The notes below the pieces were generated by a model. The model was not told the DNA's origin. It worked only from the letters and a program-made list of their open reading frames with translations, and did no database searches. Made by a program: the position numbers and the translations under genes. Of a stretch of DNA of 64,000 nt, positions 35,915 through 42,080 are shown piece by piece. Position 1 is the first letter of the stretch. The number at the start of each line of letters is the position of its first letter. The stretch comes from an uncultured bacterium (GTDB lineage Bacteria; Krumholzibacteriota; Krumholzibacteriia; Krumholzibacteriales; Krumholzibacteriaceae), in contig CAWBAN010000001.1 of assembly GCA_963786935.1 (NCBI GenBank), positions 1,408,001 through 1,472,000 on the forward strand, given 5' to 3'.

Positions 35915-37894
35915 CTAGAACTCGATCGAGGAATAGAGCGAGTACATGTCGGTTTTCGATTCCGCCTCGCCGGATGAGGTGATCGCGTCGTTGTCGACCC
36001 GCTCGTAGCGCAGCCGGAGCGCGCCGATCTTCTCGAACTCGCGCCGCAGCTCTGCGACGATTCCGCGCCGGCGCTCATCGAGGGGGGAACCGGTGCCGTC
36101 CCGCCACCTTTTGCTTTCGAGCCAGCCGAGCTCCGCGCCGAATCCTCCCCTGAGGACGAGGTCGAGCGAGGCGCCGGCGAGGGAGATCTGCGCGCGATCC
36201 GTCTCGCTCGGCGCGAGGTCGGCCTCGCGGAGCCTCTTGTAGAAGAGATCGATCGAAACGCGATCGTCGAAGAGCGGCACGCGGGCCGACGTGCGGAGCC
36301 CTTCGGTGTTCTCCTCGTACGAAAGGGCGGCATAAGGCGTGGCGTATCCGCGCGAGAGCCGCAGGTAATCGACGAGCACGGCGGGGCCGAGCGGCTTCTC
36401 GATCACGATCCCCCCGAACCCTCCGCTCCCCCGGTGGAATTCGTCCACGTACTCGAGACTCTGATTCAAGATGCCCTTTTCCTTGGTGTCGTTCCACGCG
36501 ATGATCTCGCCGCGCAGACGGGCGTATCGCACGATCGGCGCCTCCGCCGTGAAGCTCAGCGTCCGCGTTTGGATCCACGGATCCGCGGCGTAATATCCGA
36601 GCCCGACAAAATCGACCGAGTTTTTGTTCTCGAAGCTCGCGATCGCGTGAGCCGCCGCTCTCCAGAACGATCCGGTCCGTTCGTCGAGGCGCTGCCACCG
36701 CAGCTCGGCGCCGGCGATCTCCTGCGAGTATTGCGCCCGCTCCTCCCCGCCGTAGCGGTACGCCCCATAGTCCGTTTCGAGCTCCCGCCGCGGGATCGCA
36801 TAAAAAACACGCGCCTCGAAATCGGCCGCGGAGTATGTCGCGTGCGCCCCCTCGAACGTGAGAACGGGCCCGAGCTCCTCGAGACTCTCGAGAAGGAGCA
36901 CCCCCGCGGCAGCGCCGCCGCACCCGCATCCCGCGTCCCCGCCGATGCGCGGATTGTCGTCCCAGTCCCAGCGCATGAGCGTGAGCGGCGTCATGAAGAT
37001 GTCGTAGTACCCGAGCCTGCCGATGAATCCCCCCGCTTCGACCTCGGCGAACGCGCTTCCCCATTCCGACCCGAGGTATTCCGGCCCCGACGCGAGAACC
37101 TCCTCCCCTTCGTTGCTGATTCTGAGGAGGCCTCCGGCGCGCAGCGACTTCGCGAGCCTCAGCGATCCCTCGACCTCGAGCCGGTACTGCACGCCGCGCT
37201 GCGTGCTCGCCGGTTCGCCGTAGAGCCCCGTCGCGTCATCCCCCTGCGCGTCGACGGCGAGAAGCCTGATCCGCTGCAGCCCGTGATAGGAAAACGCGAT
37301 TCCCCTCGCGGGCGCCGCCGGAACGGCGGCTTGCACCGGCTCGCCGGACGCGCCGGGCGCTTCCGCGCTCTCCGCGGCGGCGACGCTTCCCTCCCGCAGC
37401 ATCTCCTCCATCGCCGCGCCGGCGTCTCCCTCGGGATCGAACCGGATCCCGCGCACGATCCCTTCCCGGTCGACGAGAATCAGCGCAAACGCCTCGAAGG
37501 GGATACCGTAGCTCGAAGCCGCCATTCCTCCCGCGTCGAGCGCCTGCGGGAACGTGATGCGGTTCGACTCGATCGTGCCGCGGACGGCGAGCCGGTCCCC
37601 GTCATCCGTATTGATGCCGAGGACCGTGATGTCCTCTCCTCCATACAGGCGATAGAAGCGTTCGCAGCCGAGGAGCGATTCGACGCAGTGCGGGCAGCTC
37701 GAACGCCAGAACACGAGAAACGTCTGCTCGTGCCGCGGGAAGAGTCCGTCCGACCGCACGGCATCTCCGCCCTCCATGAGACGCAGCTCGAACGAGGGCG
37801 CCGCCCGCCCCGGCTCGACGGCGAGCGCGGGCGCCGCCGCGCAAACGCACGCCGCGATCGCGATCGCGGCCCCGGCACGGAACAGTCGCTTCAT
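35915..37894 (-). CDS. TlpA/redoxin (CPHC) domain fused to a probable outer-membrane beta-barrel
   Basis: Signal peptide, APSFEL, FWRSSCPHC, VLGIN; amphipathic strands, GCGCG motif, terminal YSSIEF. Confidence 0.7.
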   Translation of the reverse strand: MKRLFRAGAAIAIAACVCAAAPALAVEPGRAAPSFELRLMEGGDAVRSDGLFPRHEQTFLVFWRSSCPHCVESLLGCERFYRLYGGEDITVLGINTDDGDRLAVRGTIESNRITFPQALDAGGMAASSYGIPFEAFALILVDREGIVRGIRFDPEGDAGAAMEEMLREGSVAAAESAEAPGASGEPVQAAVPAAPARGIAFSYHGLQRIRLLAVDAQGDDATGLYGEPASTQRGVQYRLEVEGSLRLAKSLRAGGLLRISNEGEEVLASGPEYLGSEWGSAFAEVEAGGFIGRLGYYDIFMTPLTLMRWDWDDNPRIGGDAGCGCGGAAAGVLLLESLEELGPVLTFEGAHATYSAADFEARVFYAIPRRELETDYGAYRYGGEERAQYSQEIAGAELRWQRLDERTGSFWRAAAHAIASFENKNSVDFVGLGYYAADPWIQTRTLSFTAEAPIVRYARLRGEIIAWNDTKEKGILNQSLEYVDEFHRGSGGFGGIVIEKPLGPAVLVDYLRLSRGYATPYAALSYEENTEGLRTSARVPLFDDRVSIDLFYKRLREADLAPSETDRAQISLAGASLDLVLRGGFGAELGWLESKRWRDGTGSPLDERRRGIVAELRREFEKIGALRLRYERVDNDAITSSGEAESKTDMYSLYSSIEF

Positions 37895-37994
37895 GAAGAT
37901 CTCCTCCCCGATCCGTTCCCCGTTGAAGTTTCCTCGCGCCACCAGTATATTCGCACCTTCGGGGCGCTCAAACATATTTCGCGGGGTTATCGGG

Positions 37995-39329
37995 ATGCAT
38001 GTCGACCGGCGCATGAACATCGAAATCGTGAAGCTCTCCGGGCCGGTCATGATCGGCATGCTCTCGCACACGATGCTCCAGCTCGTGGACACGGCGATGG
38101 TCGGGAGGCTCGGAATCGCCCCCCTCGCCGCGGTCGGGCTCGCTTCGCTCTTCCTGCACGTCACGGTCCTCGCATTCGGCTCGCTCGGCGTCGGCACGCA
38201 GGCGATCACGGCGCGGCGGCACGGCGAGCGCCGGTTCGACGAGTACCCGCGCATCGCGCTCAACGCGTTCGCCCTCGCCCTGGCCGTCGGCATTCCCGTC
38301 TCGATCGCGGGCGGCTACCTCACCCCGTGGATCTTCCCGAAGCTCGCCGCCGATCCGGCCGTCGCGCGCGAGGGGATCGCCTATATGAGCATCCGGTTCG
38401 GCGGCCTCTTCTGCGTCATCGCGATGATGACCCTCGGCGGGTTCGCCTACGGCGCCGGCCGCGTCAAGATCGACATGATCGTCTCGGTCGTCGTCAACGG
38501 ACTCCATATCCTCCTCAACTACCTCCTCATCTTCGGACACGCGGGCTTTCCTCGCCTCGAGGTGCGGGGGGCGGCGATCGCGTCGGTGATCAGCACGGTT
38601 ATCGGGATGCTCCTCTACCTCGCCCTCGTCCGCTTCAGGATTCTCGGGGGGCTTCCGGCGCCGCGTCCCGGCGCGCAGCTGTCGAAACCGCTCATGGCGC
38701 GGATCGTGCGGATATCGGGGCCCCGCGCCGTCCAGAGCGTGACGATCGCGGGATTCGTCGTGTTCCTGAGCCTCATCGGGCGGATCGGCGTCGGCGAGCT
38801 GGCCATCAGCAACGTCATCTTCAAGGCGTTCGACCTGTCGTTCATGATCGGGCTCTCGATCGGAACCGCCTCCGCGACCCTCGTCGGGCGCAGCCTCGGG
38901 GAGCGGAATCCGTCGCTCGCCGCGCGATACGGATGGCACGCCGCCGCGATCGGCTCCCTCCTCATGGGGATCATCGGGGCGTCGTTCGTGTTCTTCCCCC
39001 GTGCGATCATGGGCGTCTTCACGGACGATCTCGCGGCGATCGAGAAGGGAACCGCCGTGTTCAGACTGCTCGGCGCGTTCCAGTTCATCGACGCGGTCGG
39101 CATCATCCTCTCCCGCACCCTCCAGGGGGCCGGCAGCACCCTCTACGTCATGCTCGCCGAGATGGCCTGCATGGGCGGCATCCTCCTGCCGGTCTCCTAC
39201 GTGTCGGTCGAAATCCTCCACCGGGGAATCCTTTCCGCGTGGTGCGCGGTCTATCTCTACATCGTCTGCTTCGCCGCCGCGATGGCGTGGAAATTCAGGG
39301 AGGGCGGCTGGCGGCACATCGAGCTGTGA
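37995..39329 (+). CDS. MATE family efflux transporter
   Basis: LVDTAMVGRLG..PLAAVG, LNYLLIFG, GAAIAS, TLVGRSLG, C-terminal GGW. Confidence 0.93.
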   Translation: MHVDRRMNIEIVKLSGPVMIGMLSHTMLQLVDTAMVGRLGIAPLAAVGLASLFLHVTVLAFGSLGVGTQAITARRHGERRFDEYPRIALNAFALALAVGIPVSIAGGYLTPWIFPKLAADPAVAREGIAYMSIRFGGLFCVIAMMTLGGFAYGAGRVKIDMIVSVVVNGLHILLNYLLIFGHAGFPRLEVRGAAIASVISTVIGMLLYLALVRFRILGGLPAPRPGAQLSKPLMARIVRISGPRAVQSVTIAGFVVFLSLIGRIGVGELAISNVIFKAFDLSFMIGLSIGTASATLVGRSLGERNPSLAARYGWHAAAIGSLLMGIIGASFVFFPRAIMGVFTDDLAAIEKGTAVFRLLGAFQFIDAVGIILSRTLQGAGSTLYVMLAEMACMGGILLPVSYVSVEILHRGILSAWCAVYLYIVCFAAAMAWKFREGGWRHIEL

Positions 39330-39340
39330 GCGGCCCGGGC

Positions 39341-39361
39341 CCGCCCCGCGGGGCGGCTTTT
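39341..39361 (+). terminator. Probable intrinsic terminator after the MATE gene
   Basis: CCGCCC-CGCG-GGGCGG followed by CTTTT. Confidence 0.55.
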
Positions 39362-39363
39362 CC

Positions 39364-39404
39364 TTGACTTCGTCTTTATATTATTATATGAGTATATAGG
39401 AATA
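39364..39404 (+). promoter_or_regulatory. Promoter/operator of the ArsR operon
   Basis: TTGACT followed by an AT-rich imperfect inverted repeat (TATTATTATATGAGTATATAGGAATA) in an otherwise GC-rich context. Confidence 0.55.
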
Positions 39405-39421
39405 CGAGAAAGGGATCTTCG

Positions 39422-39781
39422 ATGACGTTCGACGCCGGATCGATGCCGTTCGAGCTCGTGGCGAGGCGCCTCAAGGCGCTCGCCGATCCCTCGCGGCTCG
39501 CGGTGCTCCGGTTCCTCTGCGACGGAGAACGGTGCGTGACCGAGATCGTCGATGAAACGGGGCTCGCGCAGGCGAACGTCTCGAAGCACCTGCGCATCCT
39601 GCTCGGCGAGGATTTCGTCCGCGCCCGCCGGGAGCGCCGGAACGTGTTCTATCGCCTCTCGAACGGAATGAGCGAGGAGATATGCGCGATCATCTGCAGG
39701 TCGATACGGGAACGGGCGTCCGGCGAGACGCGCGCGCTCGCGCGCTTCGGGGGCCGGAAACGCGCGCGAAAGGCCGGTTGA
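39422..39781 (+). CDS. ArsR/SmtB family transcriptional regulator
   Basis: LKALADPSRL..L..L...ERCV.EI....GLAQANVSKHLRIL...V...R....FYRL; Cys-rich. Confidence 0.93.
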   Translation: MTFDAGSMPFELVARRLKALADPSRLAVLRFLCDGERCVTEIVDETGLAQANVSKHLRILLGEDFVRARRERRNVFYRLSNGMSEEICAIICRSIRERASGETRALARFGGRKRARKAG

Positions 39782-39786
39782 ACGTC

Positions 39787-39945
39787 ATGGTCAAAGTCCT
39801 CATTTTCGTCGCGGTCTGGATCGTCGTTATGAAATTCGTCCTCCCGCGGCTCGGGGTGCCCACCTGAATGTCGCAGACGTGCGGGATCGGGGACCGATCC
39901 GCGGCCGAGAAACACGACGAATCGAACGAGGGAGCGAAGAGGTAG
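39787..39945 (+). CDS. Small single-TM probable selenoprotein, 52 aa, Sec at TGA 39865-39867
   Basis: MVKVLIFVAVWIVVMKFVLPRLGVPT-U-MSQTCGIGDRSAAEKHDESNEGAKR-TAG; read-through fills the gap to the next gene; hairpin at 39881-39902. Confidence 0.68.
39881..39902 (+). promoter_or_regulatory. Putative SECIS hairpin
   Basis: GC(G)GGATCGG-GGA-CCGATCCGC; loop starts 24 nt after the UGA. Confidence 0.65.
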
Positions 39946-39950
39946 GCGTC

Positions 39951-40148
39951 ATGCCGATTTTCGAATACGAATGCGGGAAGTGCGGCAGGCTCTTCGAGGA
40001 GCTCGTCATGAGCGCGGGCCAGGAGATCGCGTGCCCCTCGTGCGGCTCCGCGGACGTCGAGAAGCTCATTTCCCGGATCGCCAAGAGCTGCGGCGGATGC
40101 TCGTCGTCGGGGGGCGCCTCGTGCGGCCCCACCTGAGGAGGCTGCTGA
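39951..40148 (+). CDS. FmdB-family zinc ribbon protein, probably with C-terminal Sec (…SCGPT-U-GGC-stop)
   Basis: MPIFEYECGKCG..FE...CPSCG; TGA 40134-40136, then GGA GGC TGC TGA; hairpin CGCGGCG-GTC-CGCCGCG at 40149-40165. The family call is secure; the Sec call is less so. Confidence 0.75.
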
Positions 40149-40177
40149 CGCGGCGGTCCGCCGCGCGGAGAAACAGG

Positions 40178-40215
40178 AAGCCCGGGAGAACGGCGTTTCT
40201 CCCGGGCTTTTATTT
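40178..40215 (+). terminator. Intrinsic terminator of the ArsR operon
   Basis: AAGCCCGGGAGAA-loop-TTCTCCCGGGCTT followed by TTATTT. Confidence 0.85.
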
Positions 40216-40216
40216 C

Positions 40217-40291
40217 TGGTAGCCCCTAGGGGAGTCGAACCCCTGATTCTTGGCTGAGAACCAAGCGTCCTAACCACTAGACTAAGGGGCC
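40217..40291 (-). tRNA. tRNA-Glu(CTC)
   Basis: Anticodon arm CTTGG-TTCTCAG-CCAAG, GTTCGAC, CCA end. Confidence 0.95.
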
Positions 40292-40303
40292 ACCGTGTCG
40301 TTC

Positions 40304-40377
40304 TGGCTGGGGAGGAAGGAGTCGAACCCTCATTAACTGATCCAGAGTCAGGTGTCCTGCCATTAGACCACTCCCCA
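40304..40377 (-). tRNA. tRNA-Gln(CTG)
   Basis: TGGGGAG acceptor, anticodon loop CTCTGGA, GTTCGAC, GCCA end. Confidence 0.95.
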
Positions 40378-40493: not shown

Positions 40494-42080
40494 TCAAGGA
40501 TCCATCTTCGCGCCGAGCGCCGCCGCCGCGCGGAGCCGCTCGATCGTTTTCGCTTTCCCGATGAGCGTGATCACCCAGAATATGTCCGGCGACACGGTCT
40601 TGCCGGTGAGCGCCACCCTGCTCGGGTGGATGAGCTCCCCCGCCTCGATCTGGAGGCGGTCGACGAGCGTCCGGAGCGTCTCCTCGACCGACGATCGGTC
40701 GAAGTACCGGAGCTTCTCGTACTCGTCGGCGAGGGCGGAGAGCCGCGCGCTCGCCTCCCTCGTCTTGAGATGGTTGTTCACCGCCGCCTCGTCGCGCGCG
40801 TAGTCGTCGCGGTAAAAATACCTCATGAGCTCGGGGACGTCCTTGAGCAGCTTGAGCCGGTTTCCGAGCGCGTCGATGATGAGGGCGAGCCGGGGAATCT
40901 CCTTCGCGTAGGCCCGCTCGCCCCCGTCGGGCGCCTCGGCCCGCACCGGCTCCTTGCCCGGAACGAGCTTCAGATCGACGGGCCGGGACAGGTCCACCTC
41001 GAACGACGGCGGCAGGAGCCCCTCCTCCTCGAGCACGCCGTACACGAGCTCGATCTTTTTCGCCTGCGTGAGCGACTTGAAATGCTCGGCGTTGATCCAT
41101 TCCATCTTGCCGAGATCGAACACCGCCGGATTGCTCGAGACCTTCTTGAGCGAAAACGCCTCGATGAGCGCCTTGAGGGTGAAGAGCTCGCGCTTGCCGT
41201 CGTACGACCAGCCGAGGAGCGCGAGGTAGTTGACCATCGCCTCGCTCAGGTAGTGCTGCTCGCGGTACGAATCGACCGAGGTCGCGCCGTGGCGCTTGCT
41301 GAGCCTCGTCTTGTCGTGACCGAGGATCATCGGCAGATGCGCGAACTTCGGGAGCCGGTATCCGAGCGCGTCGAAGAGGTGCACCTGCCGCGGCGTGTTG
41401 GATATGTGATCGTCGCCGCGGATCACGTGGCTGATCTTCATGTGCCCGTCATCGACGACGACGGCGTAGTTGTAAGTCGGCCGCCCGTCCGACTTGATGA
41501 GGACGAAGTCGTCGAGATCGGCGTTCGCGAAGCTGAAATCCCCCCTGATGACGTCCCGGAAGCGCACCGCTCCCTCGAGCGGCATCTTGAACCTGACCAC
41601 GAACGGGAGGTCGCGGACGAGCTTCTCCTCGACGACGTCCGGCGGGAGCTCCCGGCAGGTCATCGTGTATTTCGGGGGCAGCTTCTTCGCTTCCTGCTCC
41701 GCCCGCGCCGCGTCGAGCTCCTCGCTCGTGCAGAAGCATCGGTACGCCTTCCCCTCGCGCAGCAGCCGGTCGACCTCGGAATGATACAGAACGCTCCGCG
41801 CGGATTGAATGTACGGCCCGTACTCCCCGCCGGCGTCGGGACCCTCGTCCCACTCGAGGCCGAGCCACCGGAGCCCGCGGAGGATGCCCTCGTACGACTC
41901 GCGCGTCGACCGCGCCGCGTCGGTGTCCTCGATGCGGAGCACGAACACGCCTTGATTCCTGCGGGCGTAGAGGAAGTTGTAGAGCGCCGTCCGCGCCCCG
42001 CCGACATGGAGGTGCCCCGTCGGGCTCGGGGCGAACCGCACCCGCACGGCGTCGTCGCGCTGTTCGATCAGATTCATCAT
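40494..42080 (-). CDS. gltX: Glutamate--tRNA ligase
   Basis: RFAPSPTG.LHVGG, LRIEDTD, CFC, RLSKRHG. Confidence 0.97.
   Translation of the reverse strand: MMNLIEQRDDAVRVRFAPSPTGHLHVGGARTALYNFLYARRNQGVFVLRIEDTDAARSTRESYEGILRGLRWLGLEWDEGPDAGGEYGPYIQSARSVLYHSEVDRLLREGKAYRCFCTSEELDAARAEQEAKKLPPKYTMTCRELPPDVVEEKLVRDLPFVVRFKMPLEGAVRFRDVIRGDFSFANADLDDFVLIKSDGRPTYNYAVVVDDGHMKISHVIRGDDHISNTPRQVHLFDALGYRLPKFAHLPMILGHDKTRLSKRHGATSVDSYREQHYLSEAMVNYLALLGWSYDGKRELFTLKALIEAFSLKKVSSNPAVFDLGKMEWINAEHFKSLTQAKKIELVYGVLEEEGLLPPSFEVDLSRPVDLKLVPGKEPVRAEAPDGGERAYAKEIPRLALIIDALGNRLKLLKDVPELMRYFYRDDYARDEAAVNNHLKTREASARLSALADEYEKLRYFDRSSVEETLRTLVDRLQIEAGELIHPSRVALTGKTVSPDIFWVITLIGKAKTIERLRAAAALGAKMDP

Follow-up and report, generated by a model that had tools for sequence, protein, structure and literature searches.

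A short arsR locus in the genome of an uncultured Krumholzibacteriota bacterium raises the question of whether in-frame UGA codons in two very small, consecutive genes are read as selenocysteine (Sec, U) and, if so, what such a pair of proteins might do. The locus lies in a stretch of 64,000 nucleotides (GenBank assembly GCA_963786935.1, contig CAWBAN010000001.1, positions 1,408,001 to 1,472,000, forward strand), hereafter called the window, and positions below are counted from its first nucleotide. A preliminary description of this DNA had seen arsR followed by a gene for a peptide with a single transmembrane helix, a gene for an FmdB-type zinc ribbon and a terminator, and had taken both small genes for candidate selenoprotein genes. 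We have found all of these elements in that order and at those places, with the two TGA triplets in the identical context CCC ACC TGA. The core of the proposal, two small selenoprotein genes standing in tandem behind arsR and undescribed as a system, was supported by our analysis. Overall, we consider it likely that both UGAs are decoded as Sec within one arsR unit, through the mechanism set out below. The features at issue are the following:

39422 to 39781, plus strand: arsR, encoding an ArsR/SmtB winged-helix repressor of 119 residues (NF033788, PF01022)
39787 to 39945, plus strand: gene for a one-helix membrane protein, 52 codons, starting five bases after arsR, with an in-frame TGA at 39865 to 39867
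39884 to 39900, plus strand: hairpin 1, a candidate selenocysteine insertion sequence (SECIS), GGAUCGG-GGA-CCGAUCC (stem 39884-39890 with 39894-39900)
39951 to 40148, plus strand: gene for an FmdB-family zinc ribbon, 65 codons, starting five bases after the membrane gene (TIGR02605, PF09723)
40134 to 40136, plus strand: in-frame TGA of the FmdB gene, probably Sec (residue 62); the true stop would be the TGA at 40146 to 40148
40149 to 40165, plus strand: hairpin 2, a candidate SECIS in the 3' untranslated region, CGCGGC-GGUCC-GCCGCG (stem 40149-40154 with 40160-40165)

Selenocysteine machinery and the membrane-gene UGA

Judged by its gene content, the organism can make selenoproteins. The genome (3.26 Mb, 96.5% complete) holds a tRNA-Sec (71.7 bits, anticodon tca), and profile searches recovered selA (494 bits), selB (356 bits) and selD (361 bits), all four exceeding the curated cut-offs. 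The selD gene (G000:C1:1324868-1325791, minus strand, L038) is itself a selenoprotein gene, with one in-frame TGA in the context CAG-U-AAK followed by a hairpin whose GGA loop starts at about nucleotide (nt) 24. That hairpin is comparable to hairpin 1 and is, as far as its sequence tells, an in-genome example of a working SECIS. In both small genes, UGA would be decoded by the ordinary bacterial route, in which SelB carrying Sec-tRNA binds a hairpin just downstream of the codon.

The membrane gene reads ...LPRLGVPT-TGA-MSQTC..., with U as residue 27 of a 52-residue protein made of an N-terminal helix, the LPRLGVPT-U-MSQTC segment and a charged tail. We have searched 41 related genomes in six frames with the open reading frame (ORF) read through its TGA. 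Thirty genomes held a homolog, each with exactly one in-frame TGA; nine (61-100% complete) gave no match, and five further rows of the search were weak matches inside long unrelated ORFs. In the resulting alignment (A1) the TGA occupies a single column in 30/30 relatives, and L19, P20, G23, U27, C32, G35 and R37 are invariant, defining the motif LPRxGxPT-U-MSxxC-xxGDR. Conservation continues behind the UGA (C32, G35, R37 and M-S-x-x-C, that is, U-x4-C), while the true stop of the gene varies among the relatives (TGA 13, TAG 12, TAA 5).

The gene is not confined to close relatives of the window. A scan with one genome per species yielded 76 membrane-gene loci, of which 74 had TGA at the Sec site and the other two a cysteine (Cys) codon. 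The relatives of the window are labelled Krumholzibacteriota, and the remaining loci Latescibacterota, KSB1, Zixibacteria, Armatimonadetes, Planctomycetota, Chloroflexota/Anaerolineae, Thermoanaerobaculia, Verrucomicrobiia and Desulfobacterota-type bacteria. Using the Cys-form profile on a Planctomycetota sample of 151 genomes, we recovered the membrane gene in 15, all with TGA and none in a Cys form.

Cys forms were abundant in protein data. The A1 profile retrieved 474 relatives (E up to 0.001) from 1.84 billion protein representatives. Among the best 150 of these, the Sec column held Cys in 94, W in 22 and G in 2; 25 proteins ended there, and 7 had other residues or were parsing misses. The 24 proteins with W or G are apparently Sec genes translated under codes that read TGA as a residue. 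The next Cys followed four residues on in 106 of the 118 best-150 proteins with C, W or G at this column. On sequence grounds, such an alternation of Cys and Sec ahead of a further Cys is the classical Sec/Cys signature. The preliminary description had staked the selenoprotein proposal on conservation behind the UGA and on Cys-substituted homologs; for the membrane gene both were found, the former in 30/30 relatives and the latter in the 94 proteins just mentioned. We have also collected 80 metagenome loci encoding the Cys form (L157-L236).

Hairpin 1 agreed with the earlier proposal in every respect: it has 7 base pairs (bp) and a GGA loop starting 24 nt after the TGA (nt 27 when counted from the U of UGA). 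It is kept in 28 aligned sequences, with 94.2% of the cells paired, compensatory changes in 4/7 pairs and 36 cells changed on both sides. None of 500 shuffles reached the observed score, and controls slid along the alignment were at most 42.9% paired. The two most distant homologs differ in hairpin sequence and have an extra codon separating U from C, and still their loop start falls within 1 nt of the usual distance. The top of the hairpin encodes the conserved G-D-R triplet, and part of the conservation behind the UGA may therefore be RNA constraint. G-D-R is not kept in the Cys-form homologs, which fits an RNA constraint acting only where Sec is used.

Taken together, these data lead us to regard the membrane gene as very probably a selenoprotein gene, and its product as the member of a new predicted Sec/Cys family. 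Beyond chance level, neither the window protein nor any of 13 free-standing Cys homologs matched a Pfam-A or NCBIfam model, and a 14th Cys homolog, the fusion P0136 discussed below, matched only through its thioredoxin domain. A word-index search with the membrane protein gave only four entries, all truncated, and the ESM Atlas only a "hypothetical protein" cluster at 0.87. Neither the tables of a 2026 review (PMC13188914) nor those in the accessible part of a 2022 review (PMC9312934) list a one-helix membrane family with this motif. The family is nonetheless large, with 474 cluster representatives under at least 10 phylum-level labels and in both Sec and Cys forms; the Sec forms are invisible to gene finders, which cut them to 26-29 residues.

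The C-terminal UGA of the FmdB gene

The second small gene encodes a clear FmdB-family protein (TIGR02605, 54.4 bits vs. a cut-off of 31.3; PF09723, 56.8 vs. 34.4 bits). An N-terminal CxxC-x17-CxxC ribbon is followed by a Gly/Ser/Cys linker and the tail SCGPT-U-GGC. The four ribbon cysteines (C8, C11, C28 and C31) have ordinary Cys codons, and the candidate Sec is residue 62. The preliminary description had the SCGPT-TGA junction right and the end of the gene wrong: what follows the TGA is not GGC-TGA but GGA GGC TGC TGA, translating as U-G-G-C-stop.

The FmdB gene lies directly behind the membrane gene in 30/30 relatives (29 complete, one cut by a contig end), and tblastn placed it within about 700 nt of the membrane gene in 43/76 loci from other phyla, upstream of it in Anaerolineae. 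Its first stop is TGA in all 29 relatives and in 42/42 complete genes from other phyla of differing G+C content, two sets that share some genomes. In every gene of both sets a second in-frame stop follows 1-4 codons later, and this one varies (TGA 24, TAA 4 and TAG 1 in the set of 29; TGA 31, TAA 6 and TAG 5 in the set of 42). A Cys precedes U by 3-7 residues in most of these genes, which makes a Cys/Sec pair plausible.

Hairpin 2 had been described as a second 7-bp stem at 20 nt. A stem is indeed present, but of 6 bp, to which a G-C pair within the loop may add, and the GGUCC loop starts 18 nt after the TGA. Among the relatives the CGGC/GCCG top is invariant and the loop is GGUCC, GGUUC or AGUUU. 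The lower stem covaries, with 81.4% of the cells paired and 30 compensatory cells, a result that 0/500 shuffles reached; the covariation check that had been suggested for the two candidate SECIS elements was positive for both. Counted from the first TGA, the loop begins at nt 22-26 irrespective of tail length, and the FmdB genes of Anaerolineae and KSB1 place different hairpins there, whose loops contain G and U. Hairpin 2 is distinct from the true terminator of the unit (40176-40211). As a negative control we have used the only other FmdB paralog of the genome (G000:C1:394921-395073, minus strand), whose Lys/Glu/Ser-rich tail has no Cys, which ends in TAA and which lacks such a hairpin. A genome-wide scan for the core motif of hairpin 2 gave 51 matches and no useful pattern.

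Two readings with less recoding have been weighed against these results. In the one that dispenses with it altogether, the locus would encode a 26-residue membrane peptide, a translationally coupled 25-residue ORF beginning at the ATG after the TGA, and a 61-residue FmdB protein. Public gene calls do stop at both TGAs, and ATG directly follows the membrane-gene TGA in the window and in 24/30 relatives. In the other six relatives, however, the residue after U is L, I or A, from the non-start codons CTN, ATA or GCC, which ruled out a stop-start pair of two micro-ORFs. Add the continuous ORF with Cys at this column in the homologs noted above, the covariation of both hairpins and the full Sec machinery, and the absence of any recoding becomes very unlikely, close to negligible. 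Invariant TGAs beside varying true stops, together with two covarying hairpins, form a pattern beyond chance.

The other reading would keep the membrane protein as the only selenoprotein, with FmdB ending at TGA 40134-40136 and hairpin 2 acting at the 3' end of the operon in RNA stability, processing or attenuation. Several observations weigh in its favour and thus against ours. We have found no FmdB homolog with Cys at the aligned position; of 29 database homologs, the 25 closest all break off immediately ahead of the TGA. Hairpin 2 lies outside the reading frame, and TGA is also the commonest second stop (24/29). The tails are only 1-4 codons long and differ between clades (GGC, AGC, SVC, GF, SPL, xPFR (NPFR), GPRW, GIPR); they are kept within clades (GGC; GPRW; xPFR; GIPR) and not between them, so that protein-level conservation behind this TGA is weak as judged from the alignments. 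Two genomes whose membrane protein is of the Cys form do have FmdB paralogs ending in ...GCCG; these are unlinked to it and at most candidate orthologs. Against an early end of FmdB stand the invariance of the first stop, when the stop of the neighbouring membrane gene is spread over all three codons; the second stop within four codons in all cases; the loop that keeps its distance as tail length changes; the separate terminator downstream; and the other paralog, devoid of all these features. The GGUCC/GGUUC loop, with its G and U, also resembles the known SelB-binding loop of the Escherichia coli fdhF element. An FmdB protein ending at its first TGA seems to us distinctly improbable. The proposal of FmdB as a selenoprotein is backed by strong RNA and stop-codon evidence and lacks a Cys-substituted homolog, and we hold it to be probable.

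Decoding at residue 62 would give a known selenoprotein family what is probably a new Sec position. In 2008 Zhang and Gladyshev predicted FmdB selenoproteins from Global Ocean Sampling reads; according to the accessible part of that paper (PMC2398784), these were two sequences carrying a CxxU motif, set against 807 Cys homologs. The accessible part of the 2022 review gives the family only as U/CxxU (PMC9312934), and Table 1 of the 2026 review, with 119 families, only as UxxU (PMC13188914). The ocean proteins belong to the same family (TIGR02605/PF09723) and use a bacterial SECIS; in them Sec replaces a cysteine of the ribbon CxxC, whereas here it would lie four residues from the C-terminus and its SECIS would be part of the 3' untranslated region. 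In this last respect the FmdB protein recalls the NCBIfam "star" selenoproteins (UXX-star families 1 and 2, KCU-star and SaoC; PMC13188914), which also have Sec within a few residues of the C-terminus and a SECIS behind the stop, and which are thought to bind metals or unknown substrates (PMC13188914). There is no sequence relation between them, and no NCBIfam selenoprotein model (June 2026; Tso and UXX-star included) matched either protein of the locus at E up to 1. The main text of the BSepDB paper contains none of the terms "FmdB", "zinc ribbon" or "membrane", and a full-text literature search combining selenoprotein, ArsR and small membrane protein returned nothing relevant. Neither form is on the published lists that were checked (the 119-family review, BSepDB, NCBIfam and Pfam); a description in Haft and Tolstoy 2025 is possible, though the NCBIfam models of that work gave no match.

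If the tail is decoded, many database entries of this very widespread family would lack their last, probably reactive, residues. The two-gene module, of about 120 residues, would also be a very small system for studying a SECIS placed behind a stop codon and the advantage of selenium over sulfur.

Gene neighbourhoods, the regulator and a candidate function

The genes found beside relatives of the membrane gene point to thiol and sulfur chemistry. Outside the class, neighbours of the Sec form encode pyridine-nucleotide disulfide oxidoreductases (L071, L095), thioredoxin-like proteins (L083, L104), rubrerythrin (L077, L104), OsmC (L100, L107), an AhpC-domain protein (L079), and TauE, YeeE-type and NrfD proteins (L126, L118, L116). 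The Cys form has a CoA-disulfide-reductase+rhodanese gene directly downstream in three loci (L090, L101, L228), and in two others a Lactamase_B+rhodanese gene (persulfide-dioxygenase-like) upstream and TauE downstream (L185, L213). Genes for peroxiredoxin (L171, L207), thioredoxin (L193, L235), DUF302 (L190, L230), cytochrome-bd-like proteins (L165, L218, L234) and efflux parts (L176, L203, L212) also adjoin it. ArsR genes stand beside both forms, in 8/80 loci for the Cys form. Many Cys forms have extra Cys-rich stretches right after C-x4-C (e.g. CMSGGCCGPSSC) that resemble FmdB tails. In the 208-residue P0136, the Cys form (…FGVPTCMSGQC…) is fused to a thioredoxin domain with WCGPC (TIGR01068, 105.7 bits); alternatively, this could be a merged gene call.

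The ArsR protein itself scored above the family cut-offs (NF033788, 79.9 vs. 55 bits; PF01022, 56.1 vs. 22 bits). Cys88 is present in 22/22 homologs, Cys33 in 19/22 and Cys92 in 17/22, with Cys38 in only 6/22. Its closest solved structure is 8qkf, followed by the persulfide sensors SqrR (6o8k-o) and BigR (3pqj), and weak matches to the CmtR and Rv2640c types were also seen.

From these data we have drawn the following tentative picture. The membrane product would be anchored by its one N-terminal helix and present U-x4-C at the cytoplasmic face of the membrane; with the N-terminus outside, the motif would lie on the same side as the zinc-ribbon protein, which has no signal peptide. The FmdB product would be soluble, its zinc ribbon followed by a flexible Gly/Ser/Cys linker and the C-terminal sequence C-x3-U-G-G-C. 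The two selenol/thiol motifs may cooperate in a stress response that ArsR switches through its conserved Cys33/Cys88(92) pair, whether through selenenylsulfide exchange or by holding sulfane sulfur or a soft electrophile between them. The stress would most likely be reactive sulfur species or thiol oxidation. The thioredoxin, flavoprotein, rhodanese, TauE, peroxiredoxin, rubrerythrin and OsmC neighbours support such a function, as do the thioredoxin fusion P0136, the occurrence of ArsR beside both forms and the presence of SqrR and BigR among the closest structures. This particular chemistry, in which a repressor with a Cys switch would govern a selenol/thiol pair that deals with reactive sulfur or thiol oxidation, is suggested by sequence comparison and is in our view quite possible, though far less secure than the recoding itself.

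A number of results weigh against this picture. The FmdB partner is not universal: tblastn found it beside the Sec form in only 1/17 loci, most of them from a Planctomycetota sample, and a local profile found it beside the Cys form in 0/80 loci (L157-L236). The neighbourhoods are heterogeneous, with efflux parts and unrelated genes among them. The regulator falls below the equivalog cut-offs for BigR (48.8 vs. 155 bits) and TsoR (39.8 vs. 115 bits), and its Cys33 aligns three residues off Cys41 of SqrR. The membrane topology is read from charge distribution only, and selenium incorporation is itself a prediction here.

The main rival accepts both selenoproteins and assigns them to soft metals or metalloids (Hg, Cd, Cu, As), which the Sec/Cys motifs would chelate at the membrane and pass to an exporter, with ArsR as the metal sensor. 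ArsR/SmtB proteins are classic metal sensors, to which the CmtR- and Rv2640c-type matches would conform, and selenoproteins linked to metals are known, among them a putative mercuric transport protein, MbdU and SaoC (PMC13188914). A MATE exporter gene lies upstream of the unit, the efflux parts beside three Cys-form loci are of the HlyD/OEP kind, and a DUF364 "heavy-metal chelation" gene adjoins one Sec form. Yet we found no P-type ATPase, MerA/T/P, ArsB/Acr3 or CDF transporter beside any of about 100 loci examined. What recurs instead are thioredoxin, flavoprotein disulfide reductases, rhodanese fusions, TauE and peroxiredoxins, and the MATE gene has a terminator of its own and adjoins the unit only within the class. 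Handling of soft metals is somewhat unlikely, and less so than any other rival considered. As to the metal/redox-stress module of the preliminary description, the neighbourhoods in relatives favour thiol and reactive-sulfur chemistry over metal transport.

Within the sulfur/redox reading, a more specific and rather speculative version, which we think unlikely to hold in full, would make the pair a minimal selenium-based relay for reactive sulfur. On the inner side of the membrane, the tethered U-x4-C would take up either sulfane sulfur or an oxidising equivalent. The C-x3-U tail of the zinc ribbon, as a free-standing counterpart of the Sec arm of thioredoxin reductase, would carry it to or from a flavoprotein disulfide reductase, and ArsR would sense the same persulfide signal through Cys33/Cys88. 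Cys forms, which have no FmdB partner but often their own Cys-rich stretches, would do the job alone. Animal thioredoxin reductase has a flexible C-terminal Gly-Cys-Sec-Gly arm on a large flavoenzyme. Both proteins would share a flexible tail at the C-terminus in which Cys and Sec are paired beside Gly, a possible mobile redox arm; here the tail, with C-x3-U spacing, extends from a zinc ribbon of 45 residues, and the operon encodes no reductase.

Two described ArsR-linked systems come closest to the locus. The "three selenoprotein operon" Tso, described by Haft and Tolstoy in 2025 and presented here after the 2026 review (PMC13188914) and the NCBIfam names, likewise has an ArsR-type regulator, TsoR, beside several selenoprotein genes, and involves thiol/rhodanese chemistry. 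It differs in that the present ArsR misses the TsoR cut-off by the margin given above, no match to TsoA, B, C, X or Y was found, and only two very small proteins are encoded here. SqrR/BigR operons (6o8k-o, 3pqj) share with the locus an ArsR protein with a Cys ahead of the DNA-binding helices and another in its final helix, although the cysteines occupy other columns and the BigR cut-off is not reached. A further point of likeness is that relatives of the membrane protein adjoin Lactamase_B+rhodanese, TauE and CoA-disulfide-reductase+rhodanese genes.

To our knowledge, no small membrane Cys/Sec protein or FmdB protein has been reported in the described SqrR/BigR reactive-sulfur operons.

Transcription unit and flanking genes

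Positions 39364-40211 would make up one small transcription unit, comprising arsR, the membrane selenoprotein gene and the gene for the FmdB zinc-ribbon selenoprotein. Its borders are given by these further features:

Upstream of the arsR unit, plus strand: MATE exporter gene (PF01554, 151 bits)
39341 to 39356, plus strand: terminator-like hairpin at the 3' end of the MATE gene, six G-C pairs and a loop of 4, then CTTTTCC
39364 to 39392, plus strand: candidate promoter, read from the aligned sequences, TTGACT (39364-39369), 17-nt spacer, TATGAG (39387-39392)
39393 to 39405, plus strand: AT-rich box (TATATAGGAATAC) with mostly invariant columns in 6/6 relatives, located between promoter and arsR; candidate ArsR operator
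40176 to 40211, plus strand: intrinsic terminator closing the three-gene unit, a stem of 15 pairs (8 G-C) with a T run behind it

Because the terminator-like hairpin at 39341-39356 stands between them, the arsR unit is most simply seen as a transcript separate from that of the MATE gene. The preliminary description had placed the module next to the exporter as part of its interpretation. We have rejected a functional link, given this terminator and a synteny that is found only within the class. In the six aligned upstream regions TTGAC is invariant, and the second hexamer is TATGAG or TATGAT in five (CATGAG in L053). A consensus promoter scan of the locus returned no promoter-like site, so that the element at 39364-39392 is a candidate only. 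Control of the unit by ArsR is what we infer from gene order and the conserved promoter region.

A wetland metatranscriptome library contained a 187-nt contig identical to the window over 39993-40173, spanning both TGAs of the FmdB gene and hairpin 2, and a second run contained a 92-nt contig over 39839-39903; one further RNA run gave no match to the unit. These contigs are weak evidence of expression, as DNA carry-over is possible, and are silent on recoding.

The sequence at 40176-40211 has the form of a terminator on the minus strand as well, downstream of two tRNA genes, tRNA-Glu(ctc) and tRNA-Gln(ctg) (40217-40377, minus strand), that converge on the unit. These tRNAs were the only hits above threshold in an Rfam scan, and its sub-threshold small RNA matches were not used. 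Beyond them lies gltX, the glutamyl-tRNA synthetase gene (40494-42080, minus strand), which recurs in the same position across the class (L065-L084). On the other side lies a long minus-strand ORF (35915-38293), in whose product a start resembling a signal peptide (MKRLFRAGAAIAIAAC...) and WRSSCPHC, a thioredoxin-like motif, can be seen. Since this ORF and the annotated start of the MATE ORF overlap, its own predicted start is uncertain; a relative at L079 matched AhpC-TSA/Redoxin.

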